Source of the DNA: Chiloscyllium plagiosum
Lineage: Eukaryota
DNA length: 64,000 nucleotides
Assembly (NCBI RefSeq): GCF_004010195.1
Contig: NC_057714.1
Coordinates: 27,207,192-27,271,191, forward strand
Direction of reading: 5' to 3'
Every line of letters starts with the position of its first letter. The first letter of the stretch is position 1. Positions 9,481 to 49,060 of the stretch are shown piece after piece. The position numbers were made by a program, and so were the translations under genes. Under the pieces are notes generated by a model. That model worked only from the letters and a program-made list of their open reading frames with translations. It did no database searches and was not told where the DNA came from.

Positions 9481-10064
9481 TGTCAAGAGTGGTCGACTTT
9501 TAATTTTTAGTCATAGCATGTGTGTATCACTGGCTATGCCAATATTTATTTTCCATTGCTAATTGTCAAAGGGATGTCAGGAATCAATCATGTTGCTGGG
9601 GTCTGGAGTCACATGTAGGCTAGATCAGGTCACATTCCTGGTACTTCCTTCCAAACAGCACACTAGCTGCATCTACACCACTGTAGCAGTCTGAGACGTT
9701 TGTTCACCCGCTTTTCCAAGGACAATAAAGATGGACAACAAATGTTGACCTTGCCTGTGCTATGCCCAGTCTACATGTGAGTTTCCCCAACTTGTTACTC
9801 TTCCAGAGGGAAGCCTCAAACTGTTAAGCAGCCTGTGAGACCGGGAGAACTGTCTCCCCTCTGTATTTCACCCACCCCTAGAGTTGGTCACAACAAGGTT
9901 GATTTTAAAAAGATCACTTCCCTCTTGGGTTTCTTTCTTCCAGCCAAAAATGTACTTAGATTTTAAGGAGAGCCAATTTAAGAAGGTTTTCTTGAATTAA
10001 TAATGAGTGAGTTTATTCAGAAGAAATCGTAACAGAGGAGTCATAAACACAGGTTAGAAATAAG

Positions 10065-10150
10065 TTAAAAATCACACAATGCCAGATTATAGCTAACTTT
10101 GATTTTTAACTTTGTACACCCCAGTCCAACACCGGCATCTCCAAATCATC
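10065..10150. mobile_element. Collapsed PLE family B pLTR hairpin insertion (ribozyme deleted)
   Basis: aagttaaaaatca (10062-10074) is inverted against tgatttttaactt (10100-10112); ends in the family B terminus ggcatctccaaatcat; 12-bp TSD gttagaaataag at 10053-10064 and 10151-10162. Confidence 0.8.
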
Positions 10151-13100
10151 GTTAGAAATAAGAAGTGTGTTCAAAAGATACAAGCTAAAGAAAATTTATA
10201 TGGATAAGTGTCTGAATTGTTCACAAAGAGTAAATAGTTGAACACTGTGGCCATGGAAGTGGATGTTACAAGTAGCATTGACATTAGCAGTTAAACATTT
10301 GATCTCAAGATTTCTGGCTTTGTAGATTGATTGAAACTCTTCTGTTCTGATTCCTTTTGGCAGTAGCTGACTGTCAGCTGAGAAAATATTAGATTTTTCC
10401 CTTTTTACCTACAGTGCAGGGGAATTTAAATGGCTGTTCTCATAAAAGTGACCATCACAGCATACATGCTCACACACTAGGACATGAAGTCAGTAACACA
10501 CAGACACAGGTCTGAAGTTTGTTTTTAACTCTTTCCTTATGTATGTTTGAAACTTGGAATCCCAAATTTGCCTCTTGCCCAGATTGCTGTCTTATTTTAA
10601 ACCGTCATGTTCACAGTCTGAAATACTCTCAGGAGATCAGGAGTGCAATTTGATTTTAATATTCTTGTTTTGAAGCTTCTTTGACAATTCATCAGGAAAT
10701 CCCAGAATCGCTGTCTCCAAATAGCCGCTGAATATACATCTTTTGGCTAACTGTCCTTTTAAGAAAGAGCATGTTATAATGAAAGTTTGAGCAATATGTG
10801 ATCCAGGGTTATGCTCCATCGACATGACACCTGCAATGCCTGCATTCTATGAATGAATCTTACAAATGGTGACTGGCAATAGAAGCTTGATAAAGCTATG
10901 CAATATGTCACATTTTATTATCCATTCTTCAGGAGAACATTTTGCCAAGACTGCTTGCTTTAAAATATCAAGATTATTTTACTACAGTTATTTGTTTTCC
11001 TTCCATTCACTCCACTGAATGTATTGATTTCACAGAGAGGGAATGACTACTGGGGAGTGAAATGTTACACTTCCAATCATTTAACCTGTATAGATACAAA
11101 TTTTCACAATGTCCTATGACAATTTAGAATGGCTAACTAATTCAGGAATGTATGGAGGGTTTTCTGCAAACATGAAATGCAGGTTCAAAGTTTGAAAGTA
11201 GCCTGTTTTCAAACGTGAAAAAGAAATATTGACACAGCTGTATATGTTATTAATCAGAAGTATACATATGTTATCAACAGGGCAGACCTTTTTGCTTCAT
11301 TATATATTGTCTGCCTCCTCGGCTGAGATATTGCATACAGCTGAATTATTTTAAATATAATATCATCGTTCCAAACACAATTTCTGTTTCAGTACGCAGT
11401 TCTCAAAATGCAGTTTAATCATTGGAATTTCTGTCTTTAAGCAGAACAAAACATGTTTTACATTACAGCCATCCGACACTGATGTATGTTTTCAATGTAA
11501 TTTTCTTACATATAAATTACTTTTTACTCTAATTCATTTTCTAATCTCTGGATTCAAGTTTCAAAAATATGATTAATAGGAGATGGCTTTAAAACCTTGC
11601 TTTCAAATTTTGAAGACAAGAAGCAGATAGTTATTGTGATTGATAAAATTGAAATGGCTCAATAGATGTTTACAAACATAAGTATCAGGAAAATACCTCA
11701 TATATTTAGATTGTCCCTCCTTCTATCTTCTCTGCCGTCTTGTCGAGTTTGCACTATTATTTGCTTCAGGTTTTGCTTTTAAATTCACCAACACCAAAAG
11801 CAATTCAAGGGATGACTTTAACCTGAATTCTGGCCAATAAACTTTGCTCCTGTGTTTTTAAGTACTGCAACTTATAAATATGTCAGCAGATAAAACTTAT
11901 CCATCACAGCATTTGTATTATCTCTTCATCTGGAGTTGCTAGCTGACACTTTAACTAGAAACAAGAGGAAATCCTACAGAGAGGACAAATTCTCTTCTTT
12001 CCCTCTTCCCTAATCCTTCCCTGCTACCCCCACTCTTATAAAATGTTTCAATTTAGGCCTTTTGGCCTCAGAGATCAGCAGCCCAGTAAAGAAAATAGAT
12101 TAAGACACTTGATAAATAGGAAGGAAATAATATTATCACAGCATGCCATCTGTAAGTGGACACCAGTGAAATGGGGAAATCTGTATGCAAATAGAAACTC
12201 AATTACAGGAAGATTTTCCACTTGTCACAAATAATTGTATCCCACTCAGCAACATTTGAAGTCCAACACAAGGGCAAGATTTACTTCTCTTGTTGACCAC
12301 ATACAGGAACTGGAGAGAACAGACTTTTTTTTGGGAAAGCTTTCTTTCTGGAGGAAGTTCCAGCATAAGTGATGTGTGAAAGTTTCTTCAATATTTATTT
12401 TCTTGAGGCTTCACTCATCCCTGATGTGATTCTTTCTCATTGTCTTTTTAATGAGTTATTTTGGGATAAATCTTTCTTTGATCATGATTGTTCGGGTTGT
12501 TGGTAAACTTCTTGATTCTAAGCCAGCCTTAAGCTTTACAGAATAAAGTATATACAGGAAGCTTTGAGCTGGGATATTCTTACTTAGAGAGAAATGCTGC
12601 CTCTTCAGAGAGTCAGCAGTTGGTTAAATGTTACACAGCGCAACTTACCAAGTACAGCATTTGACAGTACACACAAGGAAAAGTATTTGATCCTCCACTC
12701 TCTCACAGACCAATTGAACGTGCCCTGAGGCTAAGTGCTGAAAAGCTATGTCAGCCCATGTGAGTGGAGTCTGCAATCCCAACGCACTTTGGAGTAAAGC
12801 CAAGCATGAGTCCCCTCCCCCATTCACTTTGACAAACACATAACTGTGAATGCTACACGTGCAGCTATCTTATAAAAGAAATCACAAAGAAGATCACAAT
12901 AAGAAAGCCAAAGTCTCATAAAAGGTCAATTAAAGCAATGTAGTAGTAAGAGCTTTATGAAATAACTGTCCAAAAGAAAAGGAATATAAATTGACCGAAC
13001 TCCCCTAGGCCGAGGCTTTGAAGTTTCCGTGATACTGTTGCCATCTATAAAAGAGTTTATTTATAACCTGCATGGCTTACCTCTTTTCCCACCATATCAA

Positions 13101-16950: not shown

Positions 16951-17286
16951 TCAAATTACTCAAAATCCACAACTTTCCTCTCTGATGAACTCAGGTTAAT
17001 AGAAAACATTGGCTAGGTTCTGTACTTTACAAGAGAGCTGCCAACAAGGTGGTGACTTCTGGCATCTGCAACTGGCACTAGTTGCACAAACCAAGCTGCA
17101 ATCTGTCACTGGGTGAAACTCACTCTGAACACATTCTCCTTCTTATATATCTTACACATCTTCCTCCCCTGATTAAACAAAACCACACTGTAAACATAAC
17201 TTTTCAATGAGTTCTAGTAACTTGTTTTCATAATTGCAGCAAGTGCTTATCATTAAAAAGATCTTTTGCCTTTTTAGTCCACAACA

Positions 17287-17628
17287 GCTCAGTGGTTAGC
17301 CCTGCTACCCCACAGTGCCAGGGTTTCAGGTTCGATTCCAGCCTCGGGTGACTGTCTGTCTGGAATTTGCACATTCTCCCCGTATCTGTGTGGGTTTCCT
17401 CCAGGTGCTCTGGTTTCCTCCCAAATTCCAAAAGTGTGTAGGTTAGGTGAATTGGCCATAGTGTTCAGGCCATAGTGTTCAGGGATGTGTGGGTGAAGTG
17501 CGTTAGTCAGGAGTAAATGTAGAGTAATAGGTTAAGGGAATGGGTCTGGGTGGGTTACTCTTCGGAGGGTCAGTGTAGACTTATTGGGTCTAATGGCCTG
17601 TTTCCACAATGTAGGGATCCTATGAATC
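17287..17628 (+). mobile_element. HE1-type SINE
   Basis: gctcagtggttagc; B box ggttcgattcc; internal tandem duplication of ggccatagtgttca; tail gtagggatcctatga. Confidence 0.9.
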
Positions 17629-23485: not shown

Positions 23486-23499
23486 AGGAGTTAGCTGTG

Positions 23500-25450: not shown

Positions 25451-25532
25451 GGGAAAGACTCAACCATCAGACAAAAATGAAACTCTGAAATAGCAGACAC
25501 TTTTTAGAAAGTGCAAAAGGTAAAAATGTATA

Positions 25533-26625: not shown

Positions 26626-27241
26626 TATACGTAAGGTAGAAACTTCCTAAGAATGGTCTCACTTAACTAACTTAAATTCTACCAAACTAAAATATAGCGG
26701 CTCAGACCTACAATACATGGTAACTGAAGTGTGAGGTGTAACACTAAAGTCAATCCATCATTTTAAAGAGTGCATAGGCGAACAGACCTGAAAGTGCTTA
26801 TGCACAAACTTCTGAAGGTGGCACGTTGGTAAAATGATTAATAAAGTATCTGGAATCCTGCACTTTATTAATAGAGAAACAAGCATAAAATAGACTTTAA
26901 ATCAACACCCATTGAAAGTAATCTGATTGTGGCATACAGCTGAGCATTAAATATGCTGTTAAGCGGCTTTATGCCTCAGCAAGTGCTCAAATTCATGCAT
27001 GGTTTGTAAATAGACTGGACTATTCAAAATCAGTCAATGCTTCTTAAAGGGGAGGTGCACTCTGGCCATTGTAAATATTGGGAGTCATTCTAGAAGAGAA
27101 TCTGCTCTGTAGAAGAGTAAGAATGGTACAATATGATAAGCAGCAGGATTCCAGTTTTTCTGATGCAATGCTTGAGGTTGAGGTACAGGAGTTGAACTGG
27201 AGGGGAAATTTTCTGTATCCACTAGTCCCTTCTAAACAAGT

Positions 27242-28748
27242 CCCTTTCCATTTCTATCTCGGATGACCGAATCGACGCGGACATTTACTATAAACAGCTA
27301 CCTAGACTACACCTCCTCCCACCCTGCCCCCTGTAAAAATGCCATCCCATATTCCCAATTCCTTCGTCTCCGCCGCATCTGCTCCCAGGAGGACCAGTTC
27401 CAAAACCGTACAACCCAGATGGCCTCCTTCATCAAGGACCGCAATTTCCTGCCAGACATGGTCGACGATGCCCTCCACCGCATCTCTTCCACTTCCCGCT
27501 CCTCCGCCCTTGAGCCCCGCCCCTCCAACTGCCACCAGGACAGAACCCCACTGGTCCTCACCTACCACCCCACCAACCTCCATGTACAACGTATCATCCG
27601 CCGGCATTTCCGCCACCTCCAAACGGACCCCACCACCAGTGATATATTTCCCTCCCCTCCCCTATCAGCGTTCCGAAAAGACCACTCCCTCCGTGACTCC
27701 CTCATCAGGTCCACACCCCCCACCAACCCANNNNNNNNNNNNNNNNNNNNNNNNNNNNNNNNNNNNNNNNNNNNNNNNNNNNNNNNNNNNNNNNNNNNNN
27801 NNNNNNNNNNNNNNNNNNNNNNNNNNNNNNNNNNNNNNNNNNNNNNNNNNNNNNNNNNNNNNNNNNNNNNNNNNNNNNNNNNNNNNNNNNNNNNNNNNNN
27901 NNNNNNNNNNNNNNNNNNNNNNNNNNNNNNNNNNNNNNNNNNNNNNNNNNNNNNNNNNNNNNNNNNNNNNNNNNNNNNNNNNNNNNNNNNNNNNNNNNNN
28001 NNNNNNNNNNNNNNNNNNNNNNNNNNNNNNNNNNNNNNNNNNNNNNNNNNNNNNNNNNNNNNNNNNNNNNNNNNNNNNNNNNNNNNNNNNNNNNNNNNNN
28101 NNNNNNNNNNNNNNNNNNNNNNNNNNNNNNNNNNNNNNNNNNNNNNNNNNNNNNNNNNNNNNNNNNNNNNNNNNNNNNNNNNNNNNNNNNNNNNNNNNNN
28201 NNNNNNNNNNNNNNNNNNNNNNNNNNNNNNNNNNNNNNNNNNNNNNNNNNNNNNNNNNNNNNNNNNNNNNNNNNNNNNNNNNNNNNNNNNNNNNNNNNNN
28301 NNNNNNNNNNNNNNNNNNNNNNNNNNNNNNNNNNNNNNNNNNNNNNNNNNNNNNNNNNNNNNNNNNNNNNNNNNNNNNNNNNNNNNNNNNNNNNNNNNNN
28401 NNNNNNNNNNNNNNNNNNNNNNNNNNNGATTTCTCCAGTTTCCTCATTTCCCCTCCCTCCACCTTGTCTCAGTCAAATCCCTCGAACTCAGCACCGCCTT
28501 CCTAACCTGCAATCATCTTCCTGACCTCTCCGCCCCCACCCCACTCCGGCCTATCACCCTCACCTTGACCTCCCTCCACCTATCGCATTTCCAAAGCCCC
28601 TCCCCCAAGTCCCTCCTCCCTACCTTTTATCTTTGCCTGCTGGACACACTTTCCTCATTCCTGAAGAAGGGCTTATGCCCAAAACGTCGATTCTCCTGTT
28701 CCTTGGATGCTGCCTGACCTGCTGCGCTTTTCCAGCAACACATTTTCA
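27242..28748 (+). mobile_element. Penelope-like element (family A), 5'-truncated; endonuclease region falls in the assembly gap
   Basis: DIYYK..SYLDYTSSHPAPCKNAIPYSQFLRLRRICS...DRTPLVLTYHP...SAFRKDHSLRDSL (PLE RT thumb and linker); pyrimidine-rich 3' region and pLTR; 14-bp TSD ccttctaaacaagt at 27228-27241 and 28749-28762. Confidence 0.92.
28657..28692 (+). ncRNA. Hammerhead motif (family A) with core G12->A change, likely inactive
   Basis: attc-CTGAAGA-a-gggc-ttat-gccc-AAAA-cgtc-gatt. Confidence 0.65.
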
Positions 28749-29499
28749 CCTTCTAAACAAGTGCTCACTCTGGAATGACCTCCTCCAGAGGTCAATGGTA
28801 ACACTGTCCTGAGATGCTGAATGCAATGTCGGAAGATGTCCAATGAGTGTCTAAACCTGTGAACTCATTTTCTTTTTAACTGAAACATAAGCCCGAGAGG
28901 CTGCTCAATTCACATTAGTCCTTTCACTCACCCACCATCAATCTCAATTTGTCAAAGATTCACATTTATAGCTCTAACACATTCTCACACAAGTAGCTTG
29001 CACACAGAGCCAGCTATTCAACCATATCACCCAGATGTGTTGCCCCATTCTCACTGATGAACACACTTCCCTTCATTTTACAGAGGTAGCTGGTACATAA
29101 GGCAGGAAACAGCAGCAAACTGGTATAGGCCAGGCATCACTGCACACCCTTGAATCATAGAGAAGATACTAATCGCCATAGTTGGAGAAGCCACTGCTCG
29201 GCTCAGGACCGGAGATGAGGCTGAAATCACCAAAGCTAACAGTATCATTATAGTCACACCTCTGCCCCTCATCCCACAATCTCTACTGATATCGTCGGCA
29301 ATCACTTGCTAACGAGACTGGCTGTTCATCTAAATGTTCCGTGGCACTGGGTCATGGGTTCTATGGGTCCTGTGTCGCTGATGAGCCCGATCTGCATTTC
29401 TAACCACACATTTGGCAGCTGTTTCATGAAGGAGGAATTGGTCCTTGGGCCTTGAGCTCACTGGCATTCCTTTCTCCTGTTGCTTTCCTGTTTATCCTC

Positions 29500-29880: not shown

Positions 29881-31435
29881 ATGAACTTAAAATAGGCATT
29901 AAGGGTCATGTCTTCAGTTCATAACAAGATAAAGGAGCATGGCTGCTTTGAATTACACTTGACAATTGGCCTCCCAACTGTTTTTATATCTGCATCCCTG
30001 TTGGAGTTGACTCTTAATCCCACTTGTATCTGTTATAAGAGAGTTTATTTCAATTCTTAAAAGGGTATGATGTAATCAATTAAAAATCTACTTGACAACA
30101 TCTAACTCAGTGTACAGAAATAAGCAGACTAACTCCTTGAGTTAAACGAATAGTTAGATTTATTGTTAAAATAATAAAGATGTATTAAATAAAATTATGT
30201 CCAGCTTCTGCGCACACACAGACACAAGCAAGTAAGTGCGTAGCAAAGAATAGATTGATACAAGTTAAGGTTCATAAGTGAAAGAAATACGCAATTAGAT
30301 AGTGCTTCGATGATCTGTAGTACCAGGTTAAAGGTGGGGTCATTTAATTTGGGGTCTCCTGGAAACAGTCCTATTGAATTGATGGCTTACTTCAAAAATT
30401 TCATTTAGCAGCTTTTGTGAGAGATTTCAGAGAGGGGGTAGGTTAAGGCTGTTAACCGTTTTGTTCTTGTATCAATCTTTCATGATGTTTCAAGCTGGTG
30501 TTACAGAGATAGAGTTGTGGTAGGTCTAATTTTGGCGGCCTGCCCCACCTTTTGTATACTTTGGCAGCAAAGATGGCTACTGTCAGTGAATTGCTTTCAA
30601 ACTGCAAAGATGTGGTCCCAAATAATCCCATCAGGCAATAGAGTTCTCTCTCCACGTAGCCTGAGATCTTTCAATCCTTGACAAGGCAGATTTGTATTCC
30701 CTTACAATGGAAGTGCCAGTAGACATTTAGACATTTACCCGTGTCTGACAACATTGAACCAGTATCAGAAAATGTAGCCTCATTATTCTTAGATTAATCC
30801 TTCCTTAGCAAGTGTGAAAGTCTCCAGGGTCAAGTCGTAATGTCCCTTTTGTAATCCTCTTTGGGAACTACCAGAGAGTTGACAAGCTTAAAGTTACGAA
30901 ATGGTCTGGTAGCAATCCAAAACGTCCATTTAAACAATATATGAAACCAGCCAATGAATTCATGATTAGTATGATATAGCACACCCTCATAAAAAATTCC
31001 ATAAATTCAAACAGAGTCAGTAGAATGTTATCAGTAACTAACCTTCAAATTCCCTCAGATTTTAAGCTGTATTTGCCGGCCCTAATGAGGGTTCTTCCTG
31101 CTGCTGAATTCAGGTTAAATTGTGTAATTGAGAGTATTAGCTGGAACAATAAAGCCCAGAATGGTACTGCAGGTGTAAACTTAATGTTGCAAGTTAATTG
31201 AATCTCAATCTTCTAACTCTATATAATTATTTTATTGCCTGTGCAAACAGCCTCAGTATGATGATGTCCAGCACAGGGCATACTGAAAGGTGCACAAGGC
31301 ATAGGTACCATTTTGGTTTCAATAGGCTCCTACATCTTCAAAATCACCAAGTTTCATGGGCATGAATAAAAAAACTTGGAAGTTATACTAAGTGGATGCT
31401 TAACACTAATTTAGAGCTGGCTGACCTATTATGTT

Positions 31436-31648
31436 GAAACTTTATTGCTGGAACAGCACAGCAGGTCAGGCAGCATCCAGGGAACAGGAGATTCGACGTT
31501 TCGGGCACAGGCCCTTCTTCAGGAATGATGTAGAGAGAGGCCCGAAACGTCGAATCTCCTGTTCCCTGGATGCTGCCTGACCTGCTGTGCTGTTCCAGCA
31601 ATAAAGTTTCAACTTTGATCTCCAGCATCTGCAGACCTCACTTTCTCC
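31436..31648. mobile_element. PLE family A pLTR hairpin insertion with central hammerhead
   Basis: Perfect 74-bp inverted repeat 31433-31506 / 31540-31613; 15-bp TSD ctgacctattatgtt at 31421-31435 and 31649-31663. Confidence 0.92.
31491..31526 (-). ncRNA. Minimal hammerhead ribozyme (family A), intact
   Basis: Minus strand: attc-CTGAAGA-a-gggc-ctgt-gccc-GAAA-cgtc-gaat; stem I attc/gaat, stem II gggc/gccc, palindromic ACGU, GUC cleavage triplet. Confidence 0.85.
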
Positions 31649-31907
31649 CTGACCTATTATGTTCAATTCTGGTCACCATACTTCAAGAATTTGTGAAGGC
31701 TTTGGATAGGGCACAGAAGAGATTTACTAAAATGTTTGTGGAACTATGGATAACAGTGCAATGGATAAACTCTTTAGAGTAAAGTAGACAGAAAGGAGAC
31801 TTGATAGAACGATTTAAAACTGTATTGAGTTTGGATATGGTAACTAACAAGGAACTGTTCACACTGGCTAAAAGATTGGTAACTGGATGGGACTGATTTA
31901 GAGTGAG

Positions 31908-32106: not shown

Positions 32107-32379
32107 AATTATACTACATCTCCCCACCTTCTTTCAATTTCTATATGAAGGTCATTCACCATTTATTAGCACATTATGCATTCTCAACATCTCTATATTT
32201 ACCCCCAGTCCCCCAAAGAATGGAGGTGAGAGGTTGATGTTTTGAAAACTTCCACAGCACTCTCTCTGATTGTGGTCTCGTTATTACTGATCAAAGGTGA
32301 CTGGCTTCCATGGTCTCTGTAAAATGAGTTTCATTCTGTGAGGTACTTGATATAGATCTGTCCTTACCATCTTAAATTT

Positions 32380-34270: not shown

Positions 34271-35063
34271 CATTCAATGTAAAGCATGTATTCTATAATG
34301 TGTTCAGAGCTTTATTACCTCTGTCATCATGCTTCTGCCTTTTTTGTGCCATGTATTAGTATATCATCCATATAACAAATCACTCCTTTTTCCCTTTCTC
34401 GGATTTGAGACTTTGTACTCTGAAAGACTTCTGGGTCCAATGATATTCCAGAGAGTAGACAGTGCAAAGAAAAGCATGCACATGTCATGATAAAGATGAT
34501 TAATAACTTCCTTCCTTTGTTCTAAAAACTTCTCCTCAAGTAACTTCACAGCCCCTTGCACTCAGTGCTCATAGTCCTATTCAAATAGAGTAAAACAGGT
34601 GTACTTACTGGGTCAGCCGGTGAATAAAAGCAGATCCAGCCTTTAATTGTAGTCATGGGAGCTCACTCATGGAGTAAGTTTTGATCACTGCTTTTCGAGT
34701 GTGGAGGTAGCATTCTAGATCTCCCAGTGACTGCGGGTTAGACACTGAAAACCTCTGGTGGGTCTAACACAGGTTGCTCATGACTTCCTGGAATACTTTG
34801 GCCACAAAATTTCACCCTGATCTGACTGGATTTCAGTAGGTAGACCGTGTTGTGTGAAGAATGAGGTAAGTTCCTTTACCATTGCCTTGGCAGACATGGT
34901 TCTCAGGGAACCAGTTTCGGGAAAGTGCGTAACCATATCTGTGATGGTAAGAGTACATTGGTACCCCCATTTTGTTGAGTTGGAGATGCTGGTGTTGGAC
35001 TGGGGTGTACAAAGTTAAAAATCGCACAACATCAGGTTATAGTCCAACAGGTTTAATTGGAAG

Positions 35064-35098
35064 CACTAGCTTTCGGAGCGCCGCTCCTTCATCAGGTG
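35064..35098 (-). ncRNA. Minimal hammerhead ribozyme (family B), intact
   Basis: Minus strand: cac-CTGATGA-a-ggagc-ggc-gctcc-GAAA-gcta-gtg; palindromic AGCU, CUA cleavage triplet. Confidence 0.85.
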
Positions 35099-35479
35099 GT
35101 TGTGGAGTACACAATTGTAAGACACAGAATTTATAGCAAAAGTTTACAGTGTGATGTAACTGAAATTATACATTGAAAAATACCTCGATTGTTTGTTAAG
35201 TCTCTCATCTGTAAGAATGACCATGTTAGTGTCACTTCTTTCATATGTAAATCACAAATTTTATTTTAAAAGTTACATTCTCAGATGAACTTTAACAATT
35301 TGTGTCAGCCCAGATAATGTATTGAAGGTGTTAGCCCCCTGTGTGCTGCTGTCTGTGCCATAATGTTTAGATTGATTCTAATCTAAAAAATGAATTAGCA
35401 GAATCTTACATGGATTCAAGCAGTTTTTGGGCAAAGTACAATGTAACTCTGCAAGTACAAATTCACCCCACAAACATAT

Positions 35480-35706
35480 ATGCGTATGTGTGTGTGGGGT
35501 GGAGTGGGTAGGTTGTGAGTGCCTGTGAGAGAGTGTATATGTGTGAGAGTGAGTGCAAAGGTGTCTAAGTCTGAGAGAGTGCATCTGTGAGTGTGGGTGT
35601 GTGTGTGTCTGTAGGAGTGAGTTTGAGCGTCTGTATGTGTATCTGTGCATAGAAGTGTGTTTGTGTGTGTGCGGGAGTGTTTGTGTATGTCTGTGTCTGT
35701 GTGAGT
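35480..35706. repeat. Degenerate (GT)n/(GA)n microsatellite within the PLE 3' region
   Basis: Imperfect gtgtgt/gagagt run. Confidence 0.85.
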
Positions 35707-35721
35707 ATAGTGCAATGGTGG

Positions 35722-36042
35722 TCACCTGTAAAGTGACATGAACGCAAGGTCCCGTTTGAGGCCCTCTCTATGGGTACCAAAATGAGCTATCAGCCTCTGC
35801 TCGGCCACCTTTCGCTGCTGTCTGTCCCGACGTCCACCTTGGAGGGCGGTCACCCGAAGGTCCAAGGTCGAATGTCCTGGACCACTGAAGTGTTCTCCAA
35901 CTGGAAGGGAACTCTCCTGTCTGTTGATTGTTATGTGATGCTCATTCATCCTCTGTCATAGCCTCTACTCAGTTTCACCAATGTACTATGCCTCAGGGCA
36001 TCCTTGTCTGCAGCATATGAGATAGACAACGTTGGCTGAGTC
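35722..36042 (-). pseudogene. GIY-YIG endonuclease domain of the Penelope element (in-frame stops)
   Basis: DSANVVYLICCRQGCPEA*YIGETE*RL*QRMNEH...PVGEHFSGPGHS...EQRLIAHFGT..EGL. Confidence 0.92.
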
Positions 36043-36043
36043 T

Positions 36044-36565
36044 GATTAGATTACTTACAGTGTGGAAACAGGCCCTTCGGCCCAACAAGTTGATGAGTTG
36101 AGCATTGTACCCCGCTCTTATGAGGGATCCCTGAGTACTTCCAGGTGCCTGTCATGTTCCTCCTCATCTGAACAGATCCTGTGTATGCGTAGGGCTTGTC
36201 CATAGGGGATGGTTGTTTTAATATGTTTTGGGTGCAAACTGGAGAAGTGTAGCATTGTGAGGTTGTCTTGGGTTTGTGGTAGAGTTTGGTGCTGAGGTGT
36301 CTTTGGAGATGCATGTGTCCAAGAATCAGACCCTCCGAACAGCAACCCACCCAGACCCATTCCCCTATATTTACCCCTTCACCTAACACTACGGGCAATT
36401 TAGCATGGCCAATTCACCTAACCAGCACATTTCTGGACTGTGGGAGGAAACCGGAGCACCCGGAGGAAACCCACGCAAACTCCACACAGACAGTTGCCCG
36501 AGGCGGGAATTAAACCCGGGTCTCTGGCACTGTGAGGCAGCAGTGCTAATCACCGTGCCGCCCAC
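36044..36565 (-). mobile_element. HE1-type SINE inserted in the PLE, itself carrying a copied PLE RT segment (36091-36326)
   Basis: Head ggcggcacggtgattagcactgctgcctcacag; tail ctgtaagtaatctaatc; splits the PLE peptide between GRYSCD and SANVVY. Confidence 0.9.
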
Positions 36566-36824
36566 AAGTCGCATGAGTACCTGCCACATACATGGTGTGA
36601 GGTATCCCCACATGTAATGGTGGTATCCATGTCCACACTGTGACACGTCTTGCAGTGCCTACCATGGAGTTGTCCTGAAAGCCAGGCAGTTTGCTACGAA
36701 CAATAATTTGTTTGAGGTTTGTTGGTTGTTTAAAGGCGAGCAGTGGAGGTGTGGGGAAGGTCTTGGCGAGGTGCTCATCCTCATTGATATGTGTTGCAGG
36801 CTGCGAAGAACATGGTGTTGTTTT

Positions 36825-38125
36825 TCAGCTCCTGGGAAGTACTGGACAATGAAGGGTACCCTGTCGGTTTGCAGCACATGTCTGTCTCCTGAGGAGGTCG
36901 TTACAGTTCCTTGCTGTGGCACGTTGGAACTGGCAGTCGATGAGTTGAGCATTGTACCCCGCTCTTATGAGGGCATCCCTGAGTACTTCCAGGTGCCTGT
37001 CATGTTCCTCCTCATCTGAACAGATCCTATGTATGCGTAGGGCTTGTCCATAGGGGATGTTTTGTTTTAATATGTTTTGGGTGGAAACTGGAGAAGTGTA
37101 GCATTGTGAGGTTGTCTGTGGGTTTGAGGTAGAGTGTGGTGCTGAGGTGCCCATCCTTGACGGAGATGCATGTGTCCAAGAATGAGACAGATAGTCGAGA
37201 GTAGTCCATGGTGAGTTTGATGGTGGAATGAAACTTGTTGATATCACTATGTAGTTTTATCAGTGATTCCTCACTGTGGGTTCAGAGGAAGAAATTGTCA
37301 TCAATGTACCTGGTATATAGTGTTGGTGGAAGGTTCTGCATAGAGAAGAAATATTGTTCGAATCTGTGCATGAAGATGTTGGCATATTGGAGCGCAAATT
37401 TGGTCCCCATGGCTGTCCCATGTGTCTGGATGAAGAACTGGTTGTCACAGGTTGTGATCAAGGATAAAGTAGATGAGTTGTAGGATGGTGCTCAGAGACT
37501 GGGAGTTGTTGGTGTTAAGTACTGAGGCTGTTGCCATGATGCTGTCATTGTGGGGATGCTGGTGTAGAGTGCAGAAACATCCATTGTGACTGGTCAGTGG
37601 CTGCTGAGTTTCTGTAAGAAATCTGTAGTGTCGCGACAGAAGCTGGGGATCCCTGTCCAATGGTTTCAAGATGCCTTCGACATAGCCAGAGAGGTTCTCA
37701 CACAGGGTCCCATTGCCTGATACGATGGGATGTCCTGGTGTATTGGCTTTGTGTATCTTTGGAAGGCAGTAGATGTCGCGTACACGAGAAGTACATGGGT
37801 TGAGGGCACATAGGGAACTCTGAAGAACTGGATCCAAAGTCCTGACCAATGTGTTTAGTTCACAGGTGTGCTGTTTGGTCAGATCAGCCGGTAGTTGCCT
37901 GTCGTGTTCCTGGTTGTTCAGTTGTTGGTACACTTCCTTGCAGTAAATTGTTCTATTCTGAGTGATGATGGCTCCTCCTTTATCTGCTGGCTTGATGACA
38001 ATGTCGTGATTGGTTTTGAGAACCTGGATGGCATTGTATTGTGAACGGGTGATGTTTTGCTCCAACTTGTGGGTACGGCTGATGAATCTGTCATTTATAT
38101 ATTTCCTGATGGTTTGAGCATACAT
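36825..38125 (-). pseudogene. Penelope reverse transcriptase domain (frameshifted)
   Basis: ORF fragments 37445-38125, 37027-37209 and 36825-37247 plus intervening frames carry PADKG, PKIHK, GTAMG, YIDD and FLD motifs. Confidence 0.93.
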
Positions 38126-38924
38126 GTCAAGCCAAGGGCAGCGGCCCTCCAGTGGGGTTCAAGTTGACTCCTTCTTTGGTCGCTTCTCTATGGATCCCTG
38201 TGATGATTGTTCCTGTTCGTCAGTGGGCTCGTTGGAATCACTGCTGGCACCTTGAAAGAATTCCTGGAGTCTCATTACTCTGATAAATTCCTCCGTGTCT
38301 GCTGCAAGAACCAAGGGGTCCATTTTGGTGGTGGGGCAGATATGTTGGTGGTAAGGATACATTGGTACTCCCATTTTGTTGAGGCAGGGATCACACACAC
38401 ACAGTCCACTAACATTTTGTTGAATGGTTCCTCAAAAGCCAGCGCTGATATATGGGGCTTTGAGCGTCTGTTGTCAGTCACATTAACTTGTGTGAAGGAC
38501 AATGGGAGGGTGTTCTGATTACAATCACCGACAGCATTACCTACGGCATGATACGTTTTAGTATTCACTTGTTCAGACTGCCGGACATTCCTTTGGAATC
38601 TTGTAAAAGAGACAATACTGATTTGCTTTGTGTTTTTAACTTCCTTTTTTGTAGATTCCAGTCATTTATTTGTGTAACCCAAAAGTTTCACAATGATCTT
38701 ACCAGCTTCCAGATGTAAAATGAGGGATTAACAACTGTTATGTTAACAGGGAACTGGGACCTAAGGGAAAAGGTGCTATTAGAATCCTGCTGAAACATGT
38801 GTCTGTAAATAAGTAAATAAATGTTTATTAATTTGTCCTGGCTCAATTTCTTGTCCTCATCTGTCAAGTAAGAAGATTATGGCATGATATTTATACATCA
38901 GTGATACACTGGTTGCTGTATATC

Positions 38925-40244: not shown

Positions 40245-40980
40245 TGGAGTCATAGAGGCTTACAGCATAAAGAAAGACCCCTCAGCCTATCAAGTCTGTG
40301 CTGGTCAAAAACAACCACGTAACTATTGTCACCCCATCTTCCAGCACTTAACCCATAGCCTTGTATGTCTTGGCATTGTAAGTGAACATCTAAATAGTTC
40401 TTGAATGTTGTGAGGGTTTGTGCCCCAGCACCCTTATAGGCAGTGAGTTCCAGACTGCTGCCACATTCACTTTAAACCTCCTGCTCCTTACCTTAACTTT
40501 ATGTCTCTTGGTCATTGATTCCTCACCAAGGGGAATAATTTAGTCTACCCTGTCTTGTAATTTTACTCATCTCAATCGTGTCCCACTTAGTTACCTCTGC
40601 TCCAAGGAAAACAACCCCAGTCTGTCTAATCTCTCTTCATCACTAAACTCTCCAGACCAGGCAATAAATCTCCTGTGTACCCTCTTCAGTGCTATCATGT
40701 TCCTCTGACAATATGGATTCCAGAACTGTACACAATACTCTAGCTGTGGCCTAACCAACTTTTTATACAGCTCCAGCATAACTGCCCTGTCCTTAACTCT
40801 ATGTTAAGAGCAGAACTCGGCTCTGGAGAAGGGTCACTGGATCCAAAACATTAACTCTACATTCTCCCCACAAATGCTGCCAGACCTGCCGATTTTTCCA
40901 GCAATTTCCGATTTTGTTTCTTAAGCTCTATGCCTTGGCTAACATAGAAAAGTATCCCATATGCTACTTTAACCAATGAA
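40245..40980 (-). mobile_element. CR1/HER1-type LINE 3' fragment
   Basis: MLELYKKLVRPQLEYCVQFWNPY...EERLDRLGLFSLEQR. Confidence 0.9.
40804..40919 (+). mobile_element. Older PLE pLTR-derived insertion with a decayed hammerhead
   Basis: CTGGAGA-a-gggtc-actg-gatcc-AAAA-cattaactc...gctgccagacctg...tttttccagcaattt; approximate TSD cttaactctatg (40792-40803) / cttaagctctatg (40920-40932). Confidence 0.6.
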
Positions 40981-41173
40981 TTGGAGATGCTGGTGTTGGA
41001 CTGGGGTGTACAAAGTTAAAAATCACACAATACCAGGTTATAGTCCAACAGGTTTAATCGGAAGCACACTAGCTTTCGGAGCGACAATCACCTGATGAAG
41101 GAGCGTCGCTCCGAAAGCTAGTGTGCTTCCGATTAAACCTGTTGGACTATAACCTGGTGTTGTGTGATTTTTA
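40981..41173. mobile_element. PLE family B pLTR hairpin insertion with central hammerhead
   Basis: 74-bp inverted repeat with one mismatch, 41012-41085 / 41105-41178; 15-bp TSD actttaaccaatgaa at 40966-40980 and 41174-41188. Confidence 0.92.
41089..41123 (+). ncRNA. Minimal hammerhead ribozyme (family B), intact
   Basis: cac-CTGATGA-a-ggagc-gtc-gctcc-GAAA-gcta-gtg. Confidence 0.85.
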
Positions 41174-44100
41174 ACTTTAACCAATGAAGGAGGCATTGTA
41201 AGATTGCGGCAAAAGCACATCAAGGTCATCGATGCTGTTCATCTGGCACAGGCCCCTACAAACCCCAGCTCTACCTCTGCCAGCCTATGTACAGCCAAAT
41301 TGCTCCCTAAGTAGTACAGGTGTGTTGCCAACTTAACCACATTGCCCTAACTTCCGAAAATGTGATGGTTCAAAGGTGCTAGTGGTGTCCAGGCAGATAT
41401 TCCAACGTTAACAATTCTAATGGAAGTGCACAAGGCATACAGATATATGGGTCCTTTACTCTTTCCTACCATTCGTGAGCTGAAGAAAGTAGGGACCCCA
41501 ATGATCCCTGACATGAGTTCCTAATTATAACTGGGTTGTCAGGTGCTTCCCCACAGGAAGGGAGGAGGAATGAGTCAATAAATCCCCTCCGGCTTTCCAG
41601 TAGGTTCCAGTTATATAGTAACTAATAAAGTGACATCAACAGAGGCCCATCATGGATTAGCTGATTACTTTGCATCCAGAGAAGCAAGAACCTAAAAGGG
41701 AGATTCAAGTAAACAGAGTTAAGTTCTGAATCAGCAAGAAGCTGATGTGACATTTCTAGTATTTTCAAAAACAACTTTCAAGTTTGACTTTTGCCTAAGC
41801 TATAAATAAATGGAATGTATTTTGAATGCACCACTGTTGATTTTCAATTTCCTATTCAGCGGGAAATGCAGTATCATTCATAATGCTCAGATCTCAGTAT
41901 GCTGCTCAAGGTTAAATCAGATTGTCTCAAGGGAATTATATCAGCTCCTTTTTCTGCTTTAAGCAACATTCATGACATTCTGTAATCATCTCAGTGTCAC
42001 ATTAAAATTCATTGAGATGATGATGAAAGAATTATTTAGAGAGGCAAATTGTCTCAAGACTGTGAGCTTGCAACTGGATCTTTGATTTCTTGTCTGCTTC
42101 AAGTGTAATTATTCAACATATCAACATGTAAAGTTATACATGTCACTAGAAACCAGAATTTTATTATTAGGCTTTTATATAAAAAATACATTTTGTGGTT
42201 GACAGATGAAACAACTCATCAAAAAATTGAAATGTACGCTAAAATCAACATTGCTTCTAAAAGCAAAGGAGATCAAAATGTGACTGCTTACCCAGTACTT
42301 TGTAAAGATACTTATAATTCCTGATGCCCTGGAACAACTTTAGTACGTTGCAGAAATATAGGAAGAATTTATGTTAGCTTTGATTGAAAAAGGAAAGTCA
42401 GATGATTTAATCCAACTGATTTTTTAAATATGAAACTTATATAAGGTAGTTTGTGATGTTGCAAGTGTATTGTATTACATTTTCTTAATTAGGTTATATA
42501 TGGTTAGTAGGAAATTTCATTAGCAAGAGTAGAGAGATGGCATTTTAAAAATGCCTCTGTAGGTTTGTGGAATTAATGGGATCAGTATTTCTATAATTAC
42601 TGTGTTAACTTTTTCACCCATGAATTTAATCATCCAATATCCAAAACTATTTCTATGACCTTGGGACAAGTATAGTTGACCATGGCTTACTACATTTTCC
42701 GTGCATGTTCAACAATAATGAACTTTATTTCAGTGTCCCATAGATATGATATCTTTACCTTCTTGATGAAAGGAGTAAAATATCCTAACTAACATGTCTG
42801 ATAAAAATTGTAGTTACTATAAATATCTCGTAATCTGGTCTTAAATGTCTGATGATGAGGTCTGATTCTCTCCACATAAAAAAAGGCACTAGATAGATTT
42901 ACATGGGTTCGCTGTTGAAACAAAACCCATAATCACATTGTCTAAAAATGTCTAAAAAGGAAAAGTACTTGATGGCTTTCTTGATGAATTGACTTGTTTT
43001 TAAATTTAGCTGGCTCCTTGAATGAAAAAAAACTAAATGCAAAAAACATATGTTTCAAAGTATCTCAATAAAGTTCCACAACTATCAACTAAGAAGTGCC
43101 ACATATTTCTGGAGTTAATTTTAATAATGGTAACAAACAGCTTTGCAAGTTGATATACTATTTGTAAAAGCTTGCACTTACATATTAATATAGCACATGT
43201 TTGCTACTTTCAACCAATGAATTCATTCTGAGTCTGGGGAATTAAAACAGGAAAATAAGGTGACAGCAGATGAATTGAACAGGTAGTTTGTACCATTTCG
43301 TTAGAGAATACTCATAACATTCCAGAAGTAGCTGATAACCAGGAACTGGAAAAAAGGGAGAAACACAAGAAAATTACAATTTCCAGAGTTGCAATTAGTT
43401 TCACCAGTCCACAAGTCACAATTTAAAATTAAAATGCTTTATTTCCAGTTGCCAAGATGACCAAGTGATATGTACCTGCATCAGGATTTACACAAAAATA
43501 TCTGTTAATCAGGTTTCTTAATAGACATGCATTATAAGAAAACAATATTTAATAATGATGCAATAATTAGTTAACATACACAGTCAGTAATGTGGCCCAC
43601 ACATATTCACTAAATAAATATGCAAACATTCTTCAACAAAAGAGAAAAAAACAGATCTCTCCACAAAAATTGACTTTCTGAAACAAAAGAATACTATACT
43701 AGAATGTAAAAGGATAAATCCTAGGATGTTGTAGATTCTATTACTCTGATGTTCTGACATGCGTGGTCAAGTCACTAATCATGCTTGATTGTCTCTGAAG
43801 TCTTGCAAATTGAGATTTGCAGAATTGAGAAATACAATCTTGAGATATTCCTTCAACCACACTTTCAAAAAGCATCCTGTGTTTCACTGAACTGATGTAG
43901 AAGGTTTTCCTTTCAGAAATGGGAGAGGTCAGCTGAGCAGGCTTTTCATAGCTAGCTTATTTCCAATTCAGCTTGCTTCCCTGACCAAAATCAGATAAAT
44001 TAAGAATCACTCCAAGCCAATCACTGCTTAAAAAAAAAGCTTCCAGCATCATCAGCAAAGTGAACAGTTACCAACAGTCATGTGATTTCTAGGAAGTCTT

Positions 44101-45479
44101 GTTAAAATAAATCTCCAAAGTCCACAGTGAACTTTCAATGACTACTTTTAAAAAGCTATTGCAGGTATGCCCACAAACCCTTTCCCGCAATCAATCAAAA
44201 TATTTGTCTTCCAAATAATATTAAGATAAACCATCCTTGCCACACCAACACTTGAAAAAACAAAATGATTTTTTAAATATATTTCAATATAAATTGTGGA
44301 CAAAATAAATATGTTGAAAAAGATTATGGCACATCCACACTCCTCTTTCCCTCTTTATTGAACAACAAAATCTTTTTTGTGCTTAAACAATTCAAACAAT
44401 GTTACATTCTTTCAAAGCATCAATGCTTAAATTATCTTTGCCCTGAAATGTGAACAATCTTTAAAGTAAGGTTGTGACAGCAAATCTTATTGATGCAGTC
44501 TGTCATTTTGGTTTTTAAACCTTTCCATCAACGTGAAAGGAATATGATCATTATATACAACTGTCTCTTTGTGACCAGGATAGAAATTTGATTTTATTGA
44601 ATCAGGGAACGTGGGCTTCTTTGGCTGCTCTTTATTGCCCTTCTCAAATTGCCCTTGAGATGGTGGTGATGACATTCCATTTTGAACTGCTGCAGGGATG
44701 TATGCTCACAATACTGTTAGGGTGGGGGTTTCAGGATTTTGACCCTGTAACATTGAAGGAATGACAAGCCATGATGATTAGTGTTTGGAGAGGAACTTGC
44801 GGTTGTAGCATTCCCACGCATGTTCTTCCCTTATCCTTCTAGATGGCAGTGGTTGTGGATTTGGAAGGTGCTGTCTAAGGAGCTGTGCTGAACTTCTGTA
44901 CTGTATCTTGTAGATGGTATACACTGTAGCTAATGTGCATCAGTGGTGAAGGGAGTGGATGTTTGTGGATTTACGTTGTTGTACTAGATGGTGTCAATCG
45001 TTTTGAGTATTGTTTGAGCTGCACTCATCCAACCAAGTGGGGAGTATTCCATCATACTCCACATCTGATTTGTCTCCCTGTAGACAAGCTCTGGGGAGTG
45101 AGAAAGAAAGTTACTTGCTGCAGGATTTCTAGCCTCTAACATGTTCCTTTAGCTTCTATGTTTACATGGTAAGTCCAGTTCAGTTTCTGATAAGTGGTAA
45201 TCTTTAGGATGTGAATTTTTGGACATTCATTAAAGGTAAAGTCATTAAAAGTTCAGTGGTAATGGTTAGATTCTCTCGTGTTGGAGATGATCATTACCTG
45301 GTGTAACTTGCCACTTGTCAACCTGGACGTTAATAAATATGTTTCATTATCTGATGAATCTTGGAAGATGCTGAACATTGTGCAATATCAGTGAAAATCT
45401 CACTTTTGCCCTATGATGGAGGGAAGGTCATTGATGATGTGGCTAAAGATGAGCCTAGGACTCTACTCTGAGGAGCTTC

Positions 45480-45597
45480 CAGGTAAAAACAATAACTGCA
45501 GATGCTGGAAACCAGATTCTGGATTAGTGGTGCTGGAAGAGCACAGCAGTTCAGGCAGCCTGAACTGCTGTGCTCTTCCAGCACTACTAATCCAGAA
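45480..45597. mobile_element. PLE pLTR-related hairpin insertion lacking the ribozyme
   Basis: 44-bp inverted repeat with one mismatch, 45513-45556 / 45558-45601, 1-nt loop; 13-bp TSD tctgaggagcttc at 45467-45479 and 45598-45610; resembles family A (ctgcagatgctgga...agcacagcag.tcaggcagc). Confidence 0.85.
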
Positions 45598-45875
45598 TCT
45601 GAGGAGCTTCTCCAGAGATACGTTCAAGCTGAGATGACTGACCTGCAACCATCATCCACTGTGTTGGGTATGACTCCAACCAAGGGATCGATTTCCCGAT
45701 TCCTATTAAATCTAACTTTGCTACGACCCCTTGATATCACACCCAGTCAAATGCAGCCTTCATATGAAGGATGGTCACCTTCACCTTGCCTCTGGAATCC
45801 AGCTCTTTTATTCAAGTTTTAATTAAAGATGTAATAATATCAGGAACTGAGTGGCATTGATGAAACCCAAAGTGT

Positions 45876-46270
45876 AGATCATAGAGTCATAGAGATATAC
45901 AGCACAGAAACAGACCCTTCGGTCCAACTTGTCCATGCTGATCAGATATCAATACCAAACCTCGTCCCATTTGCCAGCACTTGGCCAATATCCTTCCTAT
46001 TCATATACCCATCCAAATGCCACTTAAATGTTGTAATTGTACCAGCCTCCACCACTTCCTCTGGCATCTCATTCCATATACTCATCACCCTTTGCGTGAA
46101 AAGTTACCCCTTAGGTTCCTTTTAAATCTTTCCCCTCTCACCTTAAACCTATGCCGTCTCGTTCGGGAATCCCACAACTCAGGGAAAAGACCTTGAATAT
46201 TTAACGTATCCATGCCCCTCATGATTTTATAAACCTCGATAAGGTCACCTCTCAGCCTCCGATGCTCCAG
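45876..46270 (-). mobile_element. CR1/HER1-type LINE 3' end
   Basis: LEHRRLRGDLIEVYKIMRGMD...RTRRHRFKVRGERFKRNLRGNFS; tail ctctatgactctatgatcta. Confidence 0.9.
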
Positions 46271-47159
46271 CAGGTTATTACTGAGCAAATGTTGCTTGAT
46301 AGCATTTTTGGTGATCCCTTCCATCAATGTACTAATGATTATGAGTAAATTGATGGGGCAGTAATTGGCCAGCTTTGATTTGTGTTGCTTTTTGTGCACA
46401 TGATATACCTTGGTCTATTATCCACATTGTTGGATAGAATCTAGTGATGTAGCTTCAAACTTCAAAGTAATTAAGAGTCAGGAGCAATTTTAGAGTTTGT
46501 TTTAATCATCATAGTGTATGTCCTTTGGTATTGCTTTAGTTTTCTGGAAAGATATCCCACTGGCTTTTCTATTCTCATCCCATCTTCTTGTAACAAAACG
46601 GCATCCACTCTGGAACCATATGTGCCAATTGCTACCTTCAAGTGATTAGTGTAATGTTTAAAAAGTATCCACCACTGGTTCAATAATCAAAATTTCTTTT
46701 AACTCCTCAAAAGCTGCCTGGTGCACGTCTGACCACATTACCTTGATTTTATTTTTGGGATAATCCATTGGTGGAGCAGCTACAGTTGTGAAATTTAGTA
46801 CAAATTTGTGATAAAATAGCTCATCATCAAAAACCTCATTATTTCCAATTTGGTTTTAGGGGCAGAGAACTCCACTAGTACTTTTGCTTTTGTTTTACTT
46901 AGCAGGGCTTGTCCTTACTCTATCACATGCCCTTGGCAGATTATTTGAAGATTTTCAAATTTGCAACTAGCAAGGTTTATCATCAAATCAGTCTATTATA
47001 ATTTCCTAAATAAAGCTTCCAGTTATTCCAAGTGGTCCTCCCAAGTGTCATTGAATATCAGTACATACCAAAATAAACCAATAAGATTTATAAGGAACAC
47101 TGAGTATCATTTGATTCATCAGTCCCTGGAAAGTTGCTGGTTCATTTTTTTTTACATCT

Positions 47160-47630
47160 GAGTTGAAGTTTGATTTATTGTTGGCACATGTAATGAGATA
47201 CAGTGAAAAGTGCTGTTTTGTGTGCTCACAGACAGATCATACCACAGAAAGTGCATCAGGGTGGCAGAATAGAGTGTGGAATATAATGTTACAGTCAGAG
47301 GGAAGGTGCAGAGAGAGAGAGCTCAGAATTAATGTTTGAGGGGTCTATTCAAAACTCTGATAACAGCAGGGAAGAAGCTGTCCTTGAATCTGTTTGTTCA
47401 CGTATCCAAACTTTTATATCTTCTGCCTGATGGATGAGGGTGGAACAGAGTATAACCAGGGTGGGAGGGGTTTTTGATTATGTTGACTGCTTTCCTGAGA
47501 CAATGGGAATGTAGAGGGAGTCAATGGATGGAAGGATGGACTGGGCTGTGTCCACGACTCGTGTGATCTTGGGAAGAGCAGTTGCCAAACCCATGCTGTG
47601 ATGCATCCAGAGAGGTTGCATTCGATGGTG
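47160..47630 (-). mobile_element. Rex1-type LINE 3' fragment
   Basis: Related to 16250-16950 in reverse (gggaagaagctgtccttgaatctg...gggtgggagggg). Confidence 0.75.
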
Positions 47631-47894
47631 TTCTTTTAGTTTGAAAAGTATTACACAGCTTTGGAAAAGATCAGCTGGTGTTACATTTTTTACAAATCAT
47701 TAGTTCTGGCTGCTGAAGTAAATTGCCATTATGCCTTTACCAAATCTACTAAGGCAAATATTCTGACTCTGCCAACACTATCAGCATATTTTCCCACTGG
47801 AGAGATTAGGTAGGAATCCACTTTTGCTGTTGCACTTATCTTTCTGTTATCAGTGTAGAATCTGGTTGAACCATCAGGCTTAAGCTTGACACTC

Positions 47895-48078
47895 ATTAGA
47901 GCCAAAGAGTCCGACAGCACGGAGACACGCCCTTTGGCCCAAACCAGTCTATGCCGTCCAAAACGTCCATCCACGCTAACTCCATTTTCCTGCACTTGGC
48001 CCATATCCTTCTAAACCTTTCCTATCCATGTATTTGTCCAAATGTGTTGTTAACGTACTTGCCTCAATAGAATCATAG
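47895..48078 (-). mobile_element. CR1/HER1-type 3' tail fragment
   Basis: ccattttcctgcacttggcccatatccttctaaacctttcctatccatgt, as in other CR1 tails here. Confidence 0.75.
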
Positions 48079-48474
48079 AGTAATTATTGGGGACTTCCAG
48101 CAGCTTTGATTGTGTACAATTCGATGATTTTTCCAAAATGCTTTGGATTTTTGTTTTTACCTGGGCCTATTTCTCTGGACCTTCTCTGAGGAGGATGATG
48201 TTTTGTTGGAGAGAATTTTCCCAAATCCACATCAGGTATGGCTAAAAGTGTACACTATTGTTTGTTCCAACAACATCTTTAAATTTGGTGAATAACCTTG
48301 TCAATTCTTGTCATTCTTTTATATCTAACAATGAAATTACAGTATTGAACCTCCCTATCTTTCAGTGTCAGTAGGTGGTTTGGATTTGAATTCTCTCTTC
48401 ACCACTATTCCTTTCACCCTCCACTGCCCTTATTATCTGTCACACCTGCACTTTCTTTACTGCTCTAGATGATG

Positions 48475-48687
48475 TCTTTGAGGAGAAAGTGAGGTCTGCA
48501 GATGCTGGAGATCAGAGCTGAAAATGTGTTGCTGGAAAAGCGCAGCAGGTCAGGCAGCATCCAGGGAACAGGAGAATCGACGTTTCGGGCATAAGCCCTT
48601 CCTGAAGAAGGGCTTATGCCCGAAACGTTGATTCTTCTGTTCCCTGGATGCTGCCTGACCTGCTGCGTTTTTCCAGCAACACATTTT
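48475..48687. mobile_element. PLE family A pLTR hairpin insertion with central hammerhead
   Basis: About 88-bp inverted repeat with a few mismatches, 48514-48601 / 48607-48694; 15-bp TSD ctgctctagatgatg at 48460-48474 and 48688-48702. Confidence 0.92.
48598..48633 (+). ncRNA. Hammerhead motif (family A), core intact, weak stem I, GUU site
   Basis: cttc-CTGAAGA-a-gggc-ttat-gccc-GAAA-cgtt-gatt. Confidence 0.7.
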
Positions 48688-48900
48688 CTGCTCTAGATGA
48701 TGGTAATGCTTCAACGTCTCAATGTGCCACTGCCAATTCTTTTCCTGACAGTCTGGGATATTAATAAAATAATTTACTTTACCAATTATTTTGATTTGAC
48801 TTGATTTGATTTATTATTGTCACATGCACCTAGGTACAGTAAAAAGTTTTCTTTTGCATTCAATGCAGGCTGATCATACCATACAAAGTGCATTAGGGTA

Positions 48901-49060
48901 ATAGTCCAACAGGTTTAATTGGAAGCACTAGCTTTCAGAGTGCTGCTCCTTCATCAGGTCTCCACAACCACCTTCCAATTAAACCTGTTGGACTATAACC
49001 TGGTGTTGTGTGATTTTTAACTTTGTACACCCCAGTCCAACACTGGCATCTCCACATCAT
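48901..49060. mobile_element. PLE family B pLTR hairpin insertion with decayed hammerhead
   Basis: Perfect 25-bp inverted repeat 48901-48925 / 48972-48996; minus-strand CTGATGA-a-ggagc-agc-actct-GAAA-gcta-gtg at 48926-48957; no clear long TSD. Confidence 0.85.

Follow-up and report, generated by a model that had tools for sequence, protein, structure and literature searches.

The window, by which we mean the whole 64,000-nt stretch of Chiloscyllium plagiosum contig NC_057714.1 analysed here (27207192-27271191), contains six short head-to-head pLTR repeats, which self-comparison of the sequence returned at the coordinates where a first, sequence-only reading had placed them, together with longer copies of the same elements (Table 1). 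These hairpins (h1–h6) come from two unrelated families of Penelope-like elements (PLEs), A (h2, h4 and h5) and B (h1, h3 and h6), and in each of them the outer end of one arm is about 37 nt longer (the tail), the other arm being tail-less. A search for a TSD longer than 6 bp around h6 found none. Its left flank is another repeat, other copies of which read the same up to about position 48904, as the sequence-only reading had parsed it, and because the right flank does not carry on this interrupted repeat, insertion of h6 was likely accompanied by a deletion of target DNA. The flank overlaps quoted by that reading were present at the tail-less ends, where contiguous matches measure 3, 3, 5, 4 and 1 nt for h1–h5 (for h5 the imperfect match is 6/7) and 4 nt for h6 (7/8 overall). 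At the tail end, the five hairpins with a TSD overlap the target by 0–1 nt (h2, h3 and h5 by pipeline; h1 and h4 by eye), and at h3 four of the next five bases match.

Table 1. Insertions of PLE families A and B in the window (positions of the 64,000-nt stretch).
Feature	Position	Strand	TSD or repeat	Ends and content
h1, family B head-to-head pLTR insertion	10053-10162	.	12 bp exact (10053-64/10151-62)	left tail-less, right with tail; without ribozyme
h2, family A (subfamily A2)	31421-31663	.	15 bp exact (31421-35/31649-63)	left tail-less with predicted hammerhead motif (31495-31522, - strand), right with tail
h3, family B	40966-41188	.	15 bp exact (40966-80/41174-88)	right tail-less with predicted hammerhead motif (41092-41120, +), left with tail
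h4, family A (subfamily C)	45467-45610	.	13 bp exact (45467-79/45598-610)	left with tail, right tail-less; without ribozyme
h5, family A (subfamily A1)	48460-48702	.	15 bp exact (48460-74/48688-702)	left with tail, right tail-less with predicted hammerhead motif (48602-48629, +)
h6, family B	48897-49063	.		left tail-less with predicted hammerhead motif (48929-48957, -), right with tail
Non-inverted 5′-truncated family A copy	27228-28762	+	14 bp (27228-41/28749-62)	RT thumb region, N gap, pLTR; ends at tail-less site only
Non-inverted family B copy	34966-38383	-	14-bp exact repeat (34966-79/38370-83)	broken RT and GIY-YIG ORF, pLTR, predicted hammerhead motif (35067-35095); ends at tail site only
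Internally deleted family A copy	1014-1978	+		N-terminal ORF region joined to pLTR with tail; predicted hammerhead motif (1851-1878)

The motif that we take to be a hammerhead ribozyme was assigned to the pLTRs from the minimal core pattern with stem II. By this pattern it lies on the tail-less arm of h2, h3, h5 and h6 and is absent from h1 and h4, and the motif of h5 carries a single change, at the cleavage triplet. The Rfam search gave no hammerhead match; it returned miRNA models only, which matched the hairpin shape, and in the window these precursor models scored below gathering thresholds at 41054-41136, 45502-45612 and 48555-48652. Hairpins of this kind could be miscalled as miRNA, or could give rise to double-stranded RNA.

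Both end types are clear among the non-inverted copies in the window, at 27228-28762 (tail-less) and 34966-38383 (tail). The 14-bp repeat of the latter extends on the 5′ side as a 45-bp, 87% identical repeat (34935-34979/38340-38383), which represents a long duplication that has since decayed or else filler templated by the target at the 5′ junction. Among 141 unpaired arms, an automatic call, several instances of which are doubtful or missed inversions, assigned 13 non-inverted copies with TSD-like repeats to the tail-less end and 10 to the tail end.

The hairpins are short insertions of two PLE families. Copies of both families contain the DKG and YIDD motifs of the RT, and two of four scanned proteins matched Pfam RVT_1, with E values of 3e-9 for a family B locus (L205) and of 4e-4, under the curated cut-off, for a family A locus (L189). 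The GIY-YIG EN matched Pfam with an E value of 4e-4 (21 bits against a cut-off of 22.6), and a Pfam search of five broken window fragments gave no matches. An EN motif lies upstream of the pLTR in L213, L112 and L221 for family A and in L168, L074 and the window copy for family B. A CX4CxxC linker precedes the GIY-YIG core in both families. Since a CX2-5CxxC linker between RT and EN is present in Neptune and Nematis elements and lacking in Penelope/Poseidon (Craig et al. 2021, PMC8557442), families A and B would, by their linker and C-terminal EN, fit Neptune or Nematis and not Penelope/Poseidon, which weakens the Poseidon-type analogy on which the sequence-only reading had drawn. A third PLE family in the genome (L078, L256) is without the zinc-finger linker and has a Poseidon-like EN. 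Of the features that define an endonuclease-positive PLE, the DKG-containing RT, the GIY-YIG EN, the inverted 5′-truncated pLTR, the one-sided tail of 30–40 nt and the TSD were all found here.

The element does not stop at what had been described as the complete pLTR 3′ end, namely the tail end: copies with read-through extend beyond it into the ORF's 5′ region. In family B, a reading frame starts from the ATG at which the tail ends. In older family A subfamilies (window 1960-1978; L195, L040) the tail end resembles a 3′ splice site, with a branch-point-like motif, a pyrimidine tract and TAG; in younger subfamilies the splice-site-like tail end is without the AG, and the single-cell RNA reads matched to the element contained no splice joint at this position.

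The genome sample combined 160 arbitrary 10-kb stretches (1.6 Mb, including 60 kb of N) with 60 loci that two family B searches had returned, 20 short stretches of family A2 and a further 54 loci. It yielded 178 head-to-head anchor pairs, or 170 once duplicates and edge cases were dropped. The arrangement of one complete and one truncated arm proved general: exactly one tail was present in 74 of the 83 random pairs, with none in 7 and two in 2 (binomial p = 8e-14), most of the exceptions being, by eye, tails that have decayed or neighbours from different subfamilies. Among the random one-tail pairs, 40 had the tail on the left and 34 on the right. Extrapolation from 85 random pairs in 1.54 Mb gives about 2x10^5 pairs in the 3.56-Gb genome, in which one subfamily motif has 19,500 exact matches. 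The tail-less end (site 1) and the tail end (site 2) are separated by a median of 37 nt in family A (n = 40) and 36 nt in family B (n = 35). Mean TSD length is 14.9 bp (A) and 12.6 bp (B) and does not co-vary with the site spacing (rho about -0.04 and -0.09); the TSDs have an AT content of 0.67, compared with 0.59 for the genome.

At four diagnostic sites, the two arms of a pair belonged to the same subfamily in 36/37, 43/43, 28/28 and 26/29 cases. Rare variants were almost never common to both arms (2 versus 50 in family A and 0 versus 48 in family B), a result that is uninformative on whether one RNA or two served as template; a single RNA is something that we infer. In one TSD-flanked family B hairpin (L123:4516-4637) the arms differ by a 2-nt indel that separates subfamilies, possibly owing to two templates or to slippage. 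Family A insertions of complex structure, containing internal jumps as well as partial tandems (L211–L230), showed, by eye, one tail-less and one tail end where both were readable. Two loci (L277 and L283; C1:1863312 and C1:5367030) have in common both the inversion junction and the sequence past the tail-less arm, and likely reflect a duplication or a composite element; L276 has a start similar to theirs and adjoins a family B tail.

A TSD and alignable ends were available for 108 of the 170 pairs, and overlaps with the target were scored in a clean set of 75 (TSD score of 9 or more and no more than one unmatched base per junction; window copies and L085 excluded). The mean overlap was 1.56 nt at the tail-less end (0 nt in 23/75, at least 3 nt in 21/75) and 1.92 nt at the tail end (0 nt in 11/75, at least 3 nt in 21/75), compared with 0.72 and 0.80 for random targets, 0.78 and 0.84 for permuted real targets (p = 0.0005 each) and 0.70–0.97 for a register-matched permutation (p ≤ 0.0013). 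The family A tail-end reference is degenerate at up to two places, and the nulls share that reference. Both ends thus overlap the target about twice as much as expected by chance. Each family showed the excess, as did the 28 random-only cases (1.61 nt tail-less, 2.36 nt tail), and identity beyond the first mismatch was also raised at both ends (0.40 versus 0.27 and 0.41 versus 0.31). Overall the two ends did not differ (Wilcoxon p = 0.11); values were higher at the tail end in the random-only set (p = 0.02), and in a looser set of 105 the tail-less end was higher in 35 and the tail end in 37. Overlap at both ends was found in 43/75 insertions and the one-sided pattern of the window in 7/75, and that pattern is therefore unrepresentative. 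The excess over chance that the sequence-only reading had expected at the truncated end is real, but this end is not special.

The same reading had held that a surviving ribozyme always lies on the truncated arm. This is so for h2, h3, h5 and h6, but not in the larger sample: in 71 random pairs, counted after dropping those with more than 700 bases between anchors, the ribozyme core was confined to the tail-less arm in 21 and to the tail arm in 14, was present on both arms in 20 and was missing from both in 16. The tail-less arm was the longer one in 45 random pairs and the tail arm in 23 (p = 0.01), with 35 versus 16 in random family A and 10 versus 7, not a clear bias, in random family B. 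Ribozyme placement is thus a 2:1 bias and no rule, so that both distinctive claims of the earlier reading, one-sided microhomology and invariant ribozyme polarity, fail once more copies are considered. Its association of the inversion with the ribozyme was borne out: breakpoints are concentrated just 5′ of the core, the longer arm stopping 0–9 nt 5′ of it in 41/67 family A and 20/31 family B pairs. They do not concentrate at the cleavage site, within 3 nt of which few arms end (family A, 1/67 tail-less and 5/67 tail; family B, 0/31 and 1/31). Because an RT moving 3′ to 5′ would there already be past the whole motif, the pile suggests an RNA 5′ end rather than a stall. By raw count, of 105 inversion junctions, 37 had an overlap of 1–7 nt, 59 filler, 2 were blunt and 7 ambiguous.

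We suggest that the hairpins are probably made by twin priming. From the observed end structure, site spacing, overlaps and breakpoints we infer the priming events, the number of RNAs and the RNA 5′ end. Nicks made in the two target strands by the element's enzyme, about 12–16 bp apart, would leave 3′ overhangs, and each overhang would serve as primer for reverse transcription from a fixed internal RNA site of its own, aided by 1–3 bases of pairing: site 1 would generate the tail-less end and site 2, about 37 nt downstream, where the RNA continues into the 5′ region of the ORF, the tail end. Both cDNAs would extend towards the RNA 5′ end, likely at the 5′ edge of the hammerhead motif, and would be joined head to head through short microhomology or filler, and gap filling would yield the TSD. 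That the site-1 arm is the longer one about twice as often would be expected if both primers share one RNA and the site-2 copy has to displace the first.

Both cut DNA ends likely start copying, because both overlap the target at about twice the chance level. The presence of one end of each kind in 74/83 random pairs argues for twin priming, as do the fixed site spacing, the non-inverted copies with TSD-like repeats ending at either site, the longer arms stopping 0–9 nt 5′ of the ribozyme core and the same-subfamily arms; so does the anole PLE protein, for which nicking and extension of both strands and two internal starts are described in vitro (PMC11167929). Against it, the overlaps are short and often 0 nt, and they are no proof of priming because end joining also leaves 1–3 nt; in the main text of PMC11167929, in vitro priming is non-homologous to the target and the start site is equal between strands. 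The sequence-only reading had treated homology-guided priming as established for a Poseidon-type PLE; Frangieh et al., in their main text, report priming without homology to the target. The lack of covariation between site spacing and TSD length also speaks against twin priming, and the expected arm-length bias is clear in random family A and not in random family B. The scarcity of rare variants common to both arms and the discordant arms of L123 count against the version with one RNA.

A real rival, although in our judgement an unlikely one, is a late origin of the tail difference and of the overlaps: a longer transposition intermediate would be resolved through cuts by the endonuclease at two sites, and one end or both would be attached by the host's microhomology-mediated end joining. 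Overlaps of 1–3 nt and filler at the junctions fit end joining; however, RT starts mapped in vitro coincide exactly with the tail boundaries (PMC11167929), and the narrow, family-specific TSDs fit intact overhangs better than resected ends. The model of the sequence-only reading, which we regard as distinctly unlikely, invokes a single priming event at the tail-less site, within the RNA tail, then template switching close to the ribozyme and ligation of the inverted arm, copied to the tail end, to the second DNA end. It would explain the five window copies with a TSD, which overlap the target at the tail-less end and by 0–1 nt at the tail end, the more frequently longer tail-less arm and the filler in more than half of the inversion junctions, as template jumps leave. 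Yet microhomology at the tail end is as high as at the tail-less end, the ribozyme core lies on the tail arm alone in 14/71 pairs, and the tail end, rather than marking an RNA end, falls at a tight internal site of longer read-through sequence. Non-inverted tail-only copies occur, and since the tail end is also the sole pLTR end of non-inverted insertions with a TSD, one of them in the window, a switch near the ribozyme is not required to form it; moreover, a cDNA begun at the tail-less site lacks a tail that could be copied back.

Twin priming on two separate RNAs held by an asymmetric dimer seems very unlikely to us. An arm overlap of about 100 nt, with the ribozyme core reached by both arms in 20/71 pairs, would need strand displacement on one RNA, and the discordant pair L123 also fits two templates, but the one-of-each rule and the same-subfamily arms are simpler on one RNA. 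The chance is slighter again that hairpins spread as ready-made non-autonomous elements from hairpin masters, or that they arise by self-priming on antisense RNA, as proposed in PMC3846280. The inversion junction of h3 was common to 24 of the 31 family B pairs found using the whole of h3 as query; outside h3 itself, the arm-only and random family B sets lacked it, and almost every junction in them was distinct. We rejected the hairpin-master idea, the junction sharing being a product of query selection. In addition, 22 same-junction copies contained no arm-specific lineage variant beyond one CpG-type site and changes seen twice. Self-priming, for which the antisense template proposed for palindromic junctions (PMC3846280) speaks, leaves the one-arm-only tail unexplained.

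A further lead, and only a lead, comes from a potential stem of 8–9 bp in which, in both families, the tail could pair with sequence upstream of site 1. Site 1 lies 10–12 nt before the 3′ strand of this putative stem and site 2 lies 17–18 nt after it, in both families. Folding z-scores for the whole region were not significant (0.21, -0.75 and -1.37), and beside the family A stem no compensatory pairs were found (1 G-C and 4 A-C among 100). In one of two raw single-cell RNA runs, 2112 reads matched, of which 91% continue into unlike sequence and which contain no pile of molecule starts; they fit read-through of inserted copies and are uninformative on the transcription start. None of the records that contain the element is an RNA record.

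Returning to twin priming, we tentatively put forward a broader proposal, for which we claim possibility rather than probability: PLE integration may be obligate, programmed twin priming, in which a dimeric RT-endonuclease holds one RNA and delivers the two overhangs to two non-equivalent start sites, set by a stem-loop conserved in two sequence-unrelated families and each picked by 1–3 nt of pairing. Priming on the 5′ pLTR of ordinary transcripts would then run off the RNA 5′ end at the ribozyme and produce hairpins without an ORF.

The layout of an inverted copy with a one-sided tail is already known for PLEs. The canonical insertion unit of endonuclease-positive elements comprises an inverted 5′-truncated pLTR, a tail of 30–40 bp at one end and a TSD (PMC8557442, PMC3846280), and the insertions described here are alike in their head-to-head pLTRs, one-sided tail (36–37 nt), TSD and, by pattern, a putative hammerhead motif in the pLTR; compared with the units described in those sources, the hairpins differ in being only 100–250 bp long, ORF-less and present in about 2x10^5 copies by extrapolation. 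How PLEs come by inverted pLTRs and a tail on one side is still described in print as undefined (PMC8557442, PMC11167929). Among the openly accessible main texts covered, none was found to put forward twin priming for PLEs or to report measurements of microhomology at their junctions. For the Poseidon PLE of Anolis carolinensis, both strands are nicked and extended in vitro, two adjacent internal RT starts bound the tail, the protein is a predicted dimer and the template is uncleaved RNA (PMC11167929). The AT-rich targets are a feature in common with families A and B, as would be the two adjacent internal start sites near the ORF start, the nicking and extension of both strands and the uncleaved template. 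In contrast, the main text of that paper (PMC11167929) describes primer and RNA as lacking homology and start sites as not differing by strand, whereas here overlaps are about twice chance and each site is used once per insertion; families A and B also differ from the anole element in carrying the Neptune/Nematis linker. The roughly 2x10^5 minimal insertions yield predictions for the in vitro system: one start site per strand, the two being 36–37 nt apart, starts biased by 1–3 nt of pairing, and arms that end at the 5′ edge of the ribozyme.

In LINE-1 twin priming, reportedly described by Ostertag and Kazazian in 2001, both target ends prime, the cDNAs are joined at an inversion junction with microhomology and a TSD results. 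The first L1 primer pairs with poly(A), the internal position used by the second varies, and there is no overlap between the resulting pieces. The PLE hairpins resemble these L1 insertions in the microhomology at the presumably internally primed ends and at the inversion junction (overlap in 37/105) and in the TSD. They differ in that both sites are fixed, poly(A) is involved at neither, and one stretch of the pLTR is represented in both arms.
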